Shown here one piece after another: positions 1,256-37,456 of a stretch of 40,035 bases of DNA (its first letter is position 1; every line of letters begins with the position of its first letter). A program made the position numbers and the translations under genes. Below the pieces are notes generated by a model that made no database searches, was not told the origin of the DNA, and was given only the letters and a program-made list of their open reading frames with translations. The DNA is from a virus. Location: UHGV virus genome UHGV-0090445. One strand, given 5' to 3'.

Positions 1256-3238
1256 TTAAGCGCTTGCAATAAAATCCATTTCGAATAGCTGTATTCTATC
1301 GTCTGTTATGTAGGCCTCGAAATATGTTCCATCATATGATGATAACTTAACTCCATTTATATGACCAGCATATGTATCATTGTGCATAATAATTAACTGC
1401 CCGTCACCCTTTCCTACATATTTGCACGTCCATGTCCCATTTGTTTTTGTGCTGTTAAGTAATGTAGTCGTTGACTGCACTCCATCCTTACATATTATAC
1501 CTTTTGCTTCATTTCCTATATACCTTATTCCAAAGTAATTTCCTGATTCCACGGAGCCACAAACTATAAAACCATTTAGTGAATTAACTCCAGATGTAAT
1601 TCCATAAGCAACAGCAAAACCAAGATAGTTAAATGTTTCATATTTTAATACAAGCCGTCGCTCTCTTTTATATCTTACAAGTGCCGTACCGCCAACAGTC
1701 CCCGCTCTTACAACTAATCCACCTTCTGCATAATATTCCAACCCTGAACCTGAGCCGGTTACTTTATTGGTAAATTTATCATAGTCTTGAAATTGAGTAT
1801 GGTGCCTTGTTGTCGCAAGCGTAAATGAAGATGTTACTCCATTAATTGATTTTGTAGCTGTTTCAGTTATAAGCCCTACCTGTACTCCATCAACCCTACT
1901 TTGCGCAACTTTACCAATGCACATACCAAAATCATTACCGATAATGATACCGCCTATCGAAACAGCAACCCAACTTTTTAGTGTGCCAGACATTGGCTTT
2001 AGCGCCTGTCCTATTCTTGTTGAGTTTGAGCTTAATACTCCTCCATGCTTTACAACCATCCCTTTATCATTAATTTCGTTACCGAAATCGCATGATTCAA
2101 CTGATATTGTACTATTATATGCCTCAATACACTTATCAACTCCTACCCCATTGAATGAACAATCATTAACAGCGCCAGATGTGCATCCATAAAATTCAAC
2201 TGAAGCATTTTCATCACTGTGTGTTCTATTTGTAAAGTTTAAAGCGTGCAACTCTGGGCTGTATGGTGTGCCTCCGCATGAAAATACCTGGGCTGACCTA
2301 ACATTAACTGTTGTTCTGTCGGTAGTTCTACTTACTATAACAATGTTTGCTTGTTGCGATGCGCCAGGTGGGAATAGAGGTGTGCACCCCCTCTTGCTTC
2401 TGATTACTATGTCTTCATCATAAGTTCCTGGTGCAATTGAGATAATAATTCTCTGCCAATAATTATTTGGGATATCGTCAATTGCTTCCTGAATGGTCCG
2501 GTAATCTTCCGGAACCATGAGTGTTACAGGCATCGTGTAAATACCCGCCACTGTTGACGAGTCAACGCCAAATGGATGGATGTAACCGCGATACGGATCA
2601 TTACCCCCGATAGTATTGATAAATCCTTCAATGCGTACTTTTGCTGAGTTAGTGTACAGATAACCACATTCACCAATATCTACGCGGAACTTCGCCGGGA
2701 TAGTCAGATCTTCTGTAAATTCCACTGGAACGTTGACAAAAACTCGTCCGTTACCAGAGGCGATGGCGCGTTTGAAAGCCTGCGTGTAGTCTGGAGCTGC
2801 TGGGTCTCCTGGCTCAACAAATGCGCGTAGGTCATAAAATCTTTCCTGCTGACCACCAGGGATTAAAAAACCTTTATCTCCTTCAAGCTCCTGCCTTAAC
2901 TGATCAGGGTCATACTTCAATACGTTTGGATAGTAAAATTGCTGTACGCCATATGCATCATATACAGCCATAGAATGGCCTTGCACAGTTACGAATTTGG
3001 CAATCTGTCCGTTATATACAGGATAACCAGCAGCGTTAATGATTATTGGTTGCGAAACAGGAACATGAGAACCATCTTCGTTTTCTACATAAACCTGAAT
3101 CTGGTTTTCAGGATTTACCGGGTCAGTGTCAATTTTACCGATATAAATTTTGCCATTGGCTACCGCTTTAAAAGAACGAGCCATAGTGAAGAGTTGCGAA
3201 GGCATCGATACGATCACATTGGCTGTAATGTCTGTCAT
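1256..3238 (-). CDS. Tailspike protein, P22 gp9 family (conserved N-terminal head-binding domain, divergent receptor-binding body)
   Basis: 660 aa; N-terminus [11 protein letters not shown]...[35 protein letters not shown]...[12 protein letters not shown] closely matches the remembered P22 tailspike head-binding domain; remainder is not P22-like. Confidence 0.9.
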
Positions 3239-33917: not shown

Positions 33918-33951
33918 GAGCGTTTTTAAAGAATACAACGAAGGAGGATAT

Positions 33952-34920
33952 ATGAGTGAAGTAACAGATTTAGTTGTTATTGAAAAAGCAAATGCAATGA
34001 CTGTATTTCAGTCTGCCGACCAGATTGAAGAAATCCTTCAAAGGGTTGAACGTGAAGTTATGTCCTTTGTGCCTGATATCACAACGGCAAAGGGCAGAAA
34101 GGAGATCGCTTCTCTGGCGTATAAAGTTGCGCAGACGAAAACATATCTCGATGGTCTTGGCAAAGACCTTGTTGCTGAACTGAAGGAAATTCCAAAGCTA
34201 ATTGATGCCAACCGCAAGACAGTGCGTGATCGCCTTGATGAGCTGAAAGCCAAGGCGCGCCAGCCTCTTACTGATTATGAGGAGGAACAGGCACGGATTA
34301 AAGCCGAAGAAGAAGCTAAGGCAGCAGCTGAAGCTCTCGCAAAGCAAATTGAGTCTGACCATGAAATAGCGATTTTGATGGATCGCGAATTTGACCGCCA
34401 AAGAGAAGAGGCAAGACTCAAAGCGGAGCAGGAAAAGCGAGAGCATGAAGAACGCTTAAAAAGAGAAGCTGAAGAGAAAGCCAGAGCAGAAGCCGAAGCA
34501 AAGGCAAAAGCCGAAATTGAAGCAGCAGCAAGGAGAGAAGCAGAAGCTAAGGCCGCAGCGGAACGTGCAGAGCGTGAACGCATTGAAGCCGAGCAACGAG
34601 CACAGCGCGAAGCAAAAGAGGCAGCAGAACGAGCTGAAAGAGAAAAGCAGGCGGCAATTGAAGCAGAACGCCGAAAAGCACAGGAGGAGGCTGAACGAAT
34701 CCGGCGCGAAGCTGAAGCAAAAGAGCAAGCCAGAATAGCAGAAGAAAAAAGAATCAAGGACGAAGAAGAGCGTAGAGCAAAGGATAAAGCTCACCGGAAA
34801 GAAGTAAATAACAAAATACTTGCTGACCTTATCAAGGTTGGCGCATCAGAAGATGTTGCTAAAAATATCATAACAGCCATCGTAAAAGGCGAAGTATTCG
34901 CAACAAAAATAACCTACTAA
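33952..34920 (+). CDS. DUF1351-like coiled-coil protein with Ala/Glu/Lys/Arg-rich low-complexity centre
   Basis: 322 aa; conserved-looking N- and C-terminal regions flanking about 130 aa of AEAKAKAE/ERAERE repeats; lies in the recombination module upstream of the annealing protein. Family name from memory. Confidence 0.6.
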   Translation: MSEVTDLVVIEKANAMTVFQSADQIEEILQRVEREVMSFVPDITTAKGRKEIASLAYKVAQTKTYLDGLGKDLVAELKEIPKLIDANRKTVRDRLDELKAKARQPLTDYEEEQARIKAEEEAKAAAEALAKQIESDHEIAILMDREFDRQREEARLKAEQEKREHEERLKREAEEKARAEAEAKAKAEIEAAARREAEAKAAAERAERERIEAEQRAQREAKEAAERAEREKQAAIEAERRKAQEEAERIRREAEAKEQARIAEEKRIKDEEERRAKDKAHRKEVNNKILADLIKVGASEDVAKNIITAIVKGEVFATKITY

Positions 34921-34944
34921 TAAAACCAACATAAGGAACCACCC

Positions 34945-35076
34945 ATGATTTACGCAATCGCGGGAGGCGCTCGCATGGGTGCCTTCCAATTAAATGAATC
35001 TTTACTTGAACGAATCATCCGTAAATTACGTGACGGATGGAAAAGAGTTGAGGTCTTATTATGCGCAATGAAATAG
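34945..35076 (+). CDS. cIII: CIII-like protease inhibitor (small; absent from the ORF track)
   Basis: 43 aa MIYAIAGGARMGAFQLNESLLERIIRKLRDGWKRVEV...; ESLLERI.RKLRDGWKR matches remembered lambda CIII core; SD AAGGA upstream. Confidence 0.6.
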   Translation: MIYAIAGGARMGAFQLNESLLERIIRKLRDGWKRVEVLLCAMK

Positions 35077-35213
35077 CCATTAATCACCAGATGCTTCGTG
35101 CTGCACAGAACAAAGCAGTAATAGCCAGATTTATTGGTGATTCAAAAATGTGGCTTGAAGCAAATAAAGCGATGAAATCAGCTATCAACCTTCCGTGGTA
35201 TCGCAGGAAATGA
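35061..35213 (+). CDS. kil: Kil-like small protein (absent from the ORF track)
   Basis: 50 aa; VIARFIGDSKMWLEANKAMKSAI resembles remembered lambda Kil (TIATFIGDEKMFREA); overlaps cIII end as in lambda. Confidence 0.45.
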   Translation: MRNEIAINHQMLRAAQNKAVIARFIGDSKMWLEANKAMKSAINLPWYRRK

Positions 35214-35287
35214 GTTTTACAGATAACTGGTCAGACGAAGAATTCATTCTTCAGATGAAAGAATTAATCGGTAACGAAGGAGATATT

Positions 35288-35461
35288 CATGTCACTTGCA
35301 ACCACAGTGAAGGAGAGCAAGTTACAGAGACGCATGTACACGCAGAAAGCTCTCTGGTATCGCCATAATGGCGACCGCGAAGGAATGCGGGTATGCCTTA
35401 ATTTGTCCAGAGTCGAAGTATTAAATCAGCGTTATTTCCTTGGGCCGTGTCCATTCTGAGG
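35288..35461 (+). CDS. Small hypothetical protein (57 aa) with strong SD
   Basis: AAGGAG 5 nt upstream of ATG 35288; an alternative overlapping 52-aa ORF (35210..35368) in another frame cannot be excluded. Confidence 0.3.
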
Positions 35462-35467
35462 TGAATT

Positions 35468-36175
35468 ATGGATTTGAATAAATTCGATGAGCCATTCAGC
35501 CACGAAGATATCGAATGGCGAATACAGCAAAGCGGTAAAACACGCGATGGCAAGGTGTGGGCTATGGTGCTGGCTTATGTCACGAACCGGGCAATCATGA
35601 AACGCCTGGACGATGTTTGCGGCAAAGCAGGATGGCGCAATGAATACCGCGATATTCCCAACAACGGCGGAGTTGAATGCGGCATATCAATCAAGATTGA
35701 TTCCGAATGGGTAACCAAATGGGATGCTGCTGAAAACACGCAGGTAGAAGCCGTCAAAGGTGGTCGTTCCGGTGCAATGAAGCGCGCTGCCGTTCAGTGG
35801 GGAATCGGTCGGTATCTGTATAACCTTGAGGAAGGTTTCGCACAAACATCTCTCGATAAAAAGCATGGGTGGCACAGGGCAAAACTGAAGGATGGAACAG
35901 GATTTTACTGGCTCCCTCCATCGCTTCCGGGATGGGCAATCCCAGCATCAGATAACAAACCATCACCAGAAAATATCAACCAGAAATCTCCATCGGTTGA
36001 CTGCGAACAAATCCTGAAAGACTTCAGCGATTATGCGTCAACAGAAACTGACAAGAAAAAACTCATCGAGCGTTATCAGCATGACTGGCAATTAATGGCT
36101 GGCAATGAGGATGCGCAGGCTAAATGCGTTCAGGTAATGAACATCAGAGTTAACGAACTAAAACAGGCGGCATAA
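35468..36175 (+). CDS. Single-strand annealing protein: Rad52/Sak-like N-terminal domain fused to P22 Erf-like C-terminal tail
   Basis: 235 aa; N-terminal region (GKVWAMVLAYVTNRAIMKRLDDVCG...AMKRAAVQWGIGRYLYNL) Rad52/Sak-like; C-terminal ...QILKDFSDYASTETDKKKLIERYQHDWQLMAGNEDAQAKCVQVMNIRVNELKQAA matches remembered P22 Erf C-terminus. Confidence 0.8.
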   Translation: MDLNKFDEPFSHEDIEWRIQQSGKTRDGKVWAMVLAYVTNRAIMKRLDDVCGKAGWRNEYRDIPNNGGVECGISIKIDSEWVTKWDAAENTQVEAVKGGRSGAMKRAAVQWGIGRYLYNLEEGFAQTSLDKKHGWHRAKLKDGTGFYWLPPSLPGWAIPASDNKPSPENINQKSPSVDCEQILKDFSDYASTETDKKKLIERYQHDWQLMAGNEDAQAKCVQVMNIRVNELKQAA

Positions 36176-36643
36176 ATGTCTCACTTGGACGGAATTATTA
36201 AAAGATTCGAGTCCAGCTACAAAGTTAATGAAACAACAGGTTGCTGGGAGTCTACCTATTCAAAAAACAAAGGAGGATACACAAAATTTGTAGCCTTTGG
36301 CGTAACAATGCTTTCTCATCGGGTTGCTTTTGAGCTTTATCACTCCCCCATTCCATCTGGGAAGATGGTTTGCCACAAATGCGATAACCCATGCTGCGTT
36401 AATCCTGAACATCTCTTTTTAGGTAGCGCGCAAGAAAACATGGACGACAAGATAGCAAAAGGAAGGCATCGTGGAGCCAAGAAAGGTCATGCTCATCATG
36501 GTGCAAAATTAACAGAGTGGCAGGTTATAGAAATTAGGAAAAGACTCTCTGAAAAAGAGAGTCAGTACAAGATAGCAAAAGACATGGGTGTATCTCAATC
36601 AATTATAAGCAACATAAAAACTGGCAAGAGGTGGAGAAAATGA
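36176..36643 (+). CDS. HNH homing endonuclease with C-terminal HTH-like region, insertion between annealing protein and SSB
   Basis: 155 aa; Cys/His-rich HNH-like core ([26 protein letters not shown]); C-terminal [22 protein letters not shown]; stop overlaps ssb start (ATGA). Confidence 0.8.
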
Positions 36644-37146
36644 GTTCTCGCGGGATAAATAAGGTGATTATCCTTGGTCGGGTAGGACAAGACCCGGAAG
36701 TTCGATACTCACCATCAGGAACAGCGTTCGCTAACCTGACAATAGCCACGTCAGAACAATGGCGAGATAAAAATACTGGCGAGCAAAAGGAATTGACTGA
36801 ATGGCATCGTGTTGCTGTATCCGGGAAACTGGCTGAGGTCGTGGGGCAGTATGTGAAAAAAGGTGATCAGATTTATTTCGAGGGAATGCTGAGAACCAGA
36901 AAGTGGAAAGACCAGTCAGGGCAAGACCGTTACACAACCGAGGTTCATGTCGGAATTAATGGCGTGATGCAAATGCTTGGCAGCATTGGCGACAGCAAAC
37001 AACAAGCAGCCAGCAGGCAATCACAGAAGCCACAGCAGCAATCATCACCAGCACAACACAACGAACCTCCGATGGATTTTGACGACGATATACCCTTTGC
37101 ACCAGTAACTCTCCCCTTCCCTCGTCACGCTATTCACGCAATTTAA
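36640..37146 (+). CDS. ssb: Single-stranded DNA-binding protein with C-terminal extension past the DDDIPF tip
   Basis: [23 protein letters not shown]...[15 protein letters not shown]...[18 protein letters not shown] close to E. coli-type SSB; ends ...MDFDDDIPF then 15 further residues ([15 protein letters not shown]). Confidence 0.85.
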
Positions 37147-37159
37147 TCAGGAGAAAATC

Positions 37160-37456
37160 ATGCCAGCGCCTCAGTATGGTGCGGATGACCCGCGCCGCTG
37201 TTCCGGCAATTCCGTATCGGAGGTGCTGGATAAATTCAGGAAAAACTACGACCGGATAATGTCGCTACCGCAGGAAACGAAAGAGGAAAAGGAATTTCGC
37301 CATTGTATATGGCTTGCAGAGAAAGAAGAACGCGAGCGAATTTACCAGACATCAATCCGACCATTCCGCAAAGCCACATATACCAACTTCCCTGAATATA
37401 TCGACCCGCGCCTGCGTAATTACCGCTCACGATATGGCGCTATCAGTAATGACTGA
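37160..37456 (+). CDS. Hypothetical protein (98 aa)
   Basis: ORF from track, co-directional early-left gene; no family recognised. Confidence 0.5.

Follow-up and report, generated by a model that had tools for sequence, protein, structure and literature searches.

The reading that we favour, at a probability of about 0.8, is that the gene at 35468..36175 of the 40,035-nucleotide virus DNA analysed here (UHGV-0090445, hereafter the window) encodes a two-domain annealase, essentially gp28 of Shigella phage Sf6, in which core and C-terminal domain (CTD) represent separate modules and the CTD acts as an in vivo adaptor, with the single-strand DNA-binding protein (SSB) as its most likely partner. 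A flexible linker of about 15 residues tethers a 57-residue three-helix bundle to a Rad52/Sak core of about 160 residues, and recombination at the linker or at the start of the CTD has re-assorted the two repeatedly. The parts of the gene are as follows.

35468..36175, + strand: gene for a two-domain single-strand annealing protein of the Sf6 gp28 type, 235 aa (ORF list)
35468..35947, + strand: Rad52/Sak-family annealing core, aa 1-160
35948..35998, + strand: variable low-complexity linker, aa 161-177, which holds the mosaic junction (pLDDT below 50 at 162-175; variation in alignment A1)
35999..36172, + strand: C-terminal three-helix domain, aa 178-235, common to P22 Erf and other enterobacterial phage annealing proteins

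Annealase gene and its neighbourhood

The first-pass annotation had placed the ORF exactly: it lies at 35468-36175 on the plus strand, starts with an ATG preceded by GAGGTGA and encodes 235 aa. Short ORFs of 41-70 aa overlap it on both strands. The protein is usually annotated either as 'Erf-like' or as 'Rad52/Rad22 family', and the identical gene in E. coli prophages goes under the RefSeq name 'Rad52/Rad22 family DNA repair protein'. A match to phrog_1097 extended over the full length (E = 4e-129), and proteins 88-99% identical over the full length were found in about 96 phage records, including those of Sf6, ST64T, epsilon34, L, ES18 and HK75. The window DNA from 33940 to 36178 is 98% identical to that of Sf6, where the annealase is gene 28. 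As many as 38 complete E. coli genomes, E2348/69 among them, contain the annealase-HNH-ssb-abc2 block at an identity of at least 99%. The gene sits in a lambdoid/P22-like early-left recombination module, which has the following further members.

34945-35076, + strand: cIII, 69% identical to P22 cIII
35061-35213, + strand: kil, with a match to phrog_2055 Kil
35195-35368 and 35289-35459, + strand: two small overlapping ORFs in different frames, with matches to phrog_2123 and phrog_1723, both labelled 'recombinase'
36176..36643, + strand: HNH endonuclease gene (HNH_3 with a C-terminal HTH), between the annealase gene and ssb (PF13392, E = 1e-13)
36640..37146, + strand: phage SSB gene with a canonical OB fold and a DFDDDIPF motif, then a 15-aa extension (PF00436, E = 2e-36)
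37160..37456, + strand: abc2 (anti-RecBCD protein 2; PF11043, E = 4e-61; 92% identical to P22 Abc2 by BLASTP)

The early-left genes upstream of the annealase (34945..35459) correspond to Sf6 gp32-gp29. Among them, the ORFs at 35195-35368 and 35289-35459 are Sf6 gp30 and gp29, respectively, and occupy the position of arf in P22; the former had only an SDEEFI motif in common with Arf (E 0.27). On the downstream side, the annealase stop overlaps the ATG of the HNH gene (TAAATG), and the abc2 DNA is 85% identical to that of P22. The HNH gene is not found in HK75, mEp235 and mEpX2, where ssb starts a few bases past the annealase stop. A profile search of NCBIfam found no model for any protein of the recombination module. 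Just upstream of cIII, at 33952-34920, lies a gene for an extremely charged 322-aa protein rich in Ala, Glu, Lys and Arg, which had no match in Pfam or NCBIfam; it is Sf6 gp33 and is called 'TolA' in some phage annotations.

The N-terminal core is of the Rad52/Sak type

The N-terminal domain had been described as Rad52/Sak-like and not Erf-like, and the profile searches agreed. Residues 5-136 matched Pfam Rad52_Rad22 (PF04098) with 89.9 bits, well above the curated cut-off of 20.3 (E = 2e-25), which places the protein in the Rad52/Rad22 family by sequence. In contrast, ERF (PF04404), which is matched by residues 5-146 of P22 Erf, gave no match to the annealase even at E <= 1. The core did not fall into the ERF family by BLASTP or hhalign either, both of which aligned the C-terminal domain only. 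Over residues 6-159, the identity to Sak (ORF252) of Lactococcus phage ul36 is 58%. Cores of the Rad52/Sak family form rings, bind single-stranded DNA and anneal complementary strands. The Rad52/Sak nature of the core is already captured by Pfam and by GenBank/RefSeq annotation, and, as regards the family at large, by Lopes et al. 2010.

An AlphaFold model built on A1, an alignment of 36 sequences, reached a mean pLDDT of 81.6, as compared to only 43 for a single-sequence model. Residues 1-160 were modelled as a beta-rich, Rad52-like core with helices, the three-stranded sheet being packed on the helices as in a Rad52-type fold. Residues 162-175 were disordered (pLDDT < 50) and coincided with the variable segment of A1, across which the linker differs in both length and sequence. 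Three helices followed at 179-192, 196-209 and 214-234, with means of 78-91 over 10-residue blocks. Domain-wise profile searches and structure prediction, the checks suggested by the first-pass annotation, returned a Rad52-like core, a disordered linker and a three-helix CTD.

When the model was compared with the PDB by Foldseek, Mgm101 and human RAD52 came out on top, and Sak80alpha was also among the fold matches. The best BFVD matches were phage Rad52/Sak-like proteins (E down to 2e-19), while distant full-length matches included ERF, RecT and Bet proteins. These matches agree with the single superfamily fold published for such annealases, the Rad52 SSAP superfamily fold, to which both Rad52-type and ERF-type cores have been assigned (PMC2896510, PMC9870868). 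Sequence searches of the PDB, run with the whole protein and with a profile of the CTD, brought up no significant match, only WW domains and colicin at E ~0.1.

One segment of the protein, GWHRAKLKDGTGFYWLPPSLPGWAIP (aa 129-164; 35852-35959), has a WW-domain-like spacing and weak matches to PRP40 WW domains (E ~0.1). It forms three short strands in the AlphaFold model, is conserved in ul36 Sak and in a Vibrio homologue, and is probably the counterpart of the extended beta-hairpin that Sak-type Rad52 proteins have.

The C-terminal domain is shared with P22 Erf

BLASTP against P22 Erf aligned residues 157-235 of the annealase with residues 134-205 and nothing else (66% identity, E = 2e-32). At the DNA level, homology to P22 was confined to 36005-36175, where it amounted to 79% and ended at the stop codon. 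Alignment of 36 Rad52-type with 21 ERF-type proteins by hhalign also covered the C-terminal 72 columns alone, with a probability of 99.6% (E = 2.6e-24). The CTD is of the P22 Erf type, the L, F, W, Q, R, E and L positions being conserved, and judged by these alignments its similarity to P22 Erf is far beyond chance. The claim that the last 55 or so residues match P22 Erf 'almost exactly' was therefore correct as regards homology but overstated as regards identity, which holds for 44 of the last 56 residues (78.6%).

No sequence match to the CTD was found in Pfam, NCBIfam or the PDB. By hhalign, it showed no profile similarity to the CTD of Redβ (residues 183-261) and did not group with the Redβ type; against the C-terminus of ul36 Sak the hhalign probability was 0.1%. 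A phmmer search of the CTD against 1.84 billion representatives returned 14 matches, mostly fragments, the full-length proteins being represented by other cluster members. A homologue search with the 66-aa CTD gave only fragments of close relatives. ERF cores bearing the CTD came from phages of Klebsiella, Erwinia, Morganella and Salmonella, and a Rad52 core bearing it came from a Yersinia phage. Within the range of these searches, the family appears to be confined to temperate phages of Enterobacterales.

Cores and C-terminal domains have been re-assorted at the linker

Full-length relatives comprised 114 proteins with a Rad52 core and 124 with an ERF core, and the CTD was located in them by HMM. 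It was present in 236 of the 238, and the two exceptions look frameshifted. On clustering of the 236 CTDs, the subtypes cut across core type and all four core-by-CTD combinations were present; core type and CTD subtype, as read from these clusters, assort independently. Subtype A (…TETDKKKLIERYQHDWQL…KCVQVMNIRINELKQVA) is carried by P22 Erf and six other ERF cores as well as by the window protein, SE1, Sf6 and other Rad52 cores. Subtype B (…AFTEAAMQKNTVEELKQAFAKAWKMLEG…) is carried by most ERF cores and by the Rad52-core protein P0049, and a third subtype was seen both with an ERF core, in Erwinia proteins, and with Rad52 cores. A segment directly past the core of the Rad52-like protein of Vibrio phage 1.232.O (L023 1465-2379; aa 175-200), LSVFMNAMDEAQSFEELREAFATAYKY, resembles helices 1-2 of subtype B (12/27 identical, HMM score only 5 bits), a hint that the family of the CTD might extend outside Enterobacterales.

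Individual pairs made the exchange plain. P0049 and the window protein have cores that are 99% identical and CTDs that are 35% identical, and the CTD of P0049 is 98% identical to that of the ERF-core protein P0236. Similarly, most proteins with a core 98% identical to that of P22 Erf, such as P0149 and P0168, have a different CTD that is only 40% identical; P0168 was found on at least 1000 contigs, and at the four of its loci examined a 127-aa SSB with YDDSIPF at its end comes next after the CTD, in place of Abc1. The converse was seen in P0223, the core of which is 66% and the CTD 97% identical to P22. Between different core types, CTD identities reach 98, 95, 91 and 79%.

The DNA boundaries were determined for several loci. 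SE1 and P22 (L001, erf 2602-3219) both have cIII-kil-arf upstream and abc1-abc2 downstream of the annealase gene. Their DNA homology extends up to the annealase start codon, is lost over the core and linker (SE1 2505-3037, P22 2606-3048), and picks up again where the CTD begins, in its first codons, to run on through abc1 and abc2 at 87%. The pattern indicates that between these two phages the core alone was replaced. Homology between the window and L010 (P0049, a Rad52 core with CTD subtype B) stops at nt 35967, i.e. residue 166/167, that between L010 and L011 starts at codon 168, and that between L011 and P22 stops about 25 nt into the CTD. By DNA comparison, the junctions fall in the linker or at the start of the CTD, and crossing over may plausibly take place in the conserved PEQ(I/V)LK(A/D)F stretch where helix 1 starts.

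Domain shuffling, as put forward in the first-pass annotation, is thus borne out by the SE1/P22 boundaries, the assortment among 236 relatives and the junctions in the linker, and is more general than was proposed. The associated picture of a P22 tail moved onto a foreign core did not stand: the direction of the exchange is not established, and about 94-109 of the 124 ERF-core relatives carry a CTD subtype other than that of P22, only 40% identical to it. Since the P22 subtype is a minority on ERF cores and is at least as common on Rad52 cores in our sample, the CTD is better regarded as a shared exchangeable module than as 'P22's tail'. That this tail interacts with a partner, as the first-pass annotation also supposed, is plausible. 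Full-length collinear homology to one known family, the finding that would have spoken against a chimera, was not obtained at the family level, where Pfam gave no ERF match and hhalign aligned only the tail. Full-length collinear relatives with the same two-domain architecture are abundant, and both cores belong to one superfamily at the level of fold.

SSB as the candidate partner of the C-terminal domain

From the analogy with Redβ and Sak80α and from gene context, we give roughly even odds to binding of the CTD to the acidic C-terminal tip (DD[DS]IPF) of SSB. The partner would be either the phage's own SSB, from the gene just downstream, or that of the host, and binding would load the annealase onto SSB-coated single-stranded DNA made by Abc2-modified RecBCD. 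Sak80alpha can anneal SSB-coated DNA only with its helical CTD and with the last 7 residues of its SSB (PMC11846896). The three-helix CTD of Redβ interacts with SSB and with lambda Exo; recombination requires it, whereas annealing does not (PMC9870868, PMC5052646).

Gene context was looked at for 13 core/CTD combinations. In most of them ssb lies directly downstream of the annealase gene, whatever the core or CTD subtype (window, Sf6, L010-L014, L015, L017, L019, Yersinia, S9-5 and Morganella). The SSBs encoded there have either a canonical OB fold or are of the 127-154-aa phrog_44 type, and all of them have the D-D-x-[IV]-P-F tail motif, with a 15-residue extension in the window and L017. No phage ssb adjoins the annealase gene in P22, SE1, L020, Klebsiella RCIP0034 and Erwinia EhrS_49, which would leave the host SSB as the only SSB candidate there. 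The place of ssb is taken by abc1 in P22, SE1 and L020, and by a gene for a small unknown protein in Klebsiella RCIP0034 and Erwinia EhrS_49.

Some of the results count against SSB. The CTD is slightly acidic (net charge -1 to -4) and so offers no obvious complement to an acidic SSB tail, and it had no specific structural match. In addition, the 15 residues that the window SSB (36640-37146; tail 37099-37146) has past DFDDDIPF would bury the terminal Phe carboxylate that is normally recognised by SSB partners. This extension is conserved in HK75, mEp235, mEpX2, epsilon34, g341c and the SSB of an Atlantibacter prophage, while the SSBs of the close relatives N7, ES18, Huey and S9-5 end at IPF. 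Sf6 has the same 14 residues at the end of another protein, the gp26 endonuclease. The SSB tail codons, the intergenic region and abc2 form one 97%-identical DNA block.

A CTD subtype is often found in one DNA block with the gene downstream of it, CTD-A with abc1-abc2 and CTD-B with the 127-aa SSB and abc2, which could reflect mere linkage or a different partner. The main rival to SSB, which we consider unlikely and which is not mutually exclusive with it, is that the CTD docks the annealase onto Abc2-modified RecBCD or onto Abc1, instead of or besides SSB. The presence of abc2 just downstream in the window, Sf6, P22, SE1, L010-L014 and L020 would fit such docking, as would the co-inheritance of CTD-A with abc1-abc2 as one DNA block in P22, SE1 and L020 (87-92% identity). 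The Redβ CTD does bind its exonuclease (Caldwell 2019, as cited in PMC9870868). However, abc2 (PF11043) was not seen in the fetched flanks of L015, L017, L019 and the Yersinia, Morganella, S9-5, Klebsiella and Erwinia loci, all of which have the CTD; in the window, moreover, homology to P22 stops at the annealase stop codon and abc1 is missing. Arf was also considered as a partner, being encoded upstream of both core types and several CTD subtypes, and was rejected as it is absent from the window and Sf6.

It is less probable still that the CTD contacts another host protein, such as RecA or a replisome component, and in this way sets host compatibility. Such a contact would be in keeping with the fact that no phage-encoded neighbour is universal and that all finds of the CTD were in phages and prophages of Enterobacterales. 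In 2010, Scaltriti et al. reportedly found that the C-terminal part of ul36 Sak contacts RecA; that C-terminus, however, is unrelated in sequence to the CTD. The documented partner of two other SSAP CTDs is SSB (PMC11846896, PMC9870868).

With SSB as the preferred partner, we tentatively suggest, at somewhat under even odds, that the CTD is a portable, host-clade-specific adaptor for the DD[DS]IPF tip of SSB and possibly for a second partner as well. Either core could then be combined with it freely by temperate phages of Enterobacterales, and a swap of the CTD subtype, not one of the core, would set which SSB or host is compatible.

Alternatives to an exchanged protein domain

We see very little chance that the window protein is no true chimera, being collinear with P22 Erf throughout, with the cores diverged past recognition and the tail conserved. 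The common Rad52 SSAP superfamily fold of the two cores (PMC2896510, PMC9870868) and the distant full-length BFVD alignments to ERF proteins could be read in this way. The pairs with 99% identical cores and 35% identical tails, and their converse, contradict it, as do the sharp boundaries of DNA homology at the linker and the 58% identity of the Rad52 core to a Lactococcus phage Sak with an unrelated tail.

The CTD dN/dS was 0.045 for the window as compared to P22 (pS 0.72) and 0.09-0.12 for closer pairs, the value for the core being 0.077. The CTD is under purifying selection comparable to that on the core, with synonymous sites near saturation, and its hydrophobic pattern is kept down to 25-40% identity. 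Although mosaic junctions cluster in the 3' part of the annealase gene and its stop abuts the next start (TAAATG), these dN/dS values of 0.05-0.12 at saturated synonymous sites, the conserved hydrophobic pattern and the confidently predicted three-helix fold make it highly improbable that the 3' end owes its conservation to the DNA itself (for instance as a 'boundary sequence' in recombination or through translational coupling with the following gene) and not to a protein domain.

Comparison with known systems

Collinear over the full length with the window protein (88-99% aa identity) are Sf6 gp28 and the 'Erf' of each of ST64T, epsilon34, L, ES18, HK75 and mEpX2, the genes of which have the same position in the early-left module. 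As compared to the Sf6 gp28 group, the window protein is essentially without difference, and the window has an HNH gene between the annealase gene and ssb. With P22 Erf, it has in common the CTD (~57 residues, 79%), the genomic position and the nature of a two-domain annealing protein. It differs from P22 Erf in having a core of another sequence family (a different Pfam family, with no alignment by BLASTP or hhalign) and a non-homologous linker; P22 has abc1 downstream, whereas the window has the HNH gene and ssb. Sak of ul36 has a core 58% identical (6-159) and, as in the window, ssb directly downstream, but its C-terminal ~90 residues bear no detectable relation to the CTD, and the two proteins are not full-length orthologues. 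Redβ of lambda and Sak of the staphylococcal phage 80alpha are likewise SSAPs with a helical CTD, and no sequence similarity was seen between their CTDs and the one studied here.

A domain swap relative to P22 Erf was described for gene 36 of epsilon34 in 2008, in agreement with the two-domain structure of Poteete (PMC2629481), and for the Erf of phage L in 2020 (PMC8022706). The 'Erf domain swap' is therefore already known for P22-like phages and has also been noted in the Sf6 genome literature; here the mosaic nature of the annealase is confirmed and generalised. The gene is a textbook case of how a gene of lambdoid/P22-like phages can itself be mosaic, with the join at a domain boundary. 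Prophages of E. coli and Salmonella commonly encode the protein. The annotation 'Erf-like' is misleading because the catalytic core is of the Rad52/Sak type. The exchangeable CTD is an obvious candidate for the host or partner specificity that limits the portability of phage recombinases in recombineering. Binding of the CTD to SSB, if true, would extend the SSAP-SSB partnership seen with Redβ and Sak80α to the classical Erf system.

Other endonuclease genes were also seen nearby in related modules: a homologue in S9-5 (34% identical) lies upstream of erf, HNH_3 genes are present upstream in L019 and a few genes further downstream in L017, and the annotation of Sf6 gp26 is that of an endonuclease. 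Local mosaicism may be driven in part by endonucleases of the homing type. P22 Erf, the reference protein of the ERF family, itself carries a minority CTD subtype.
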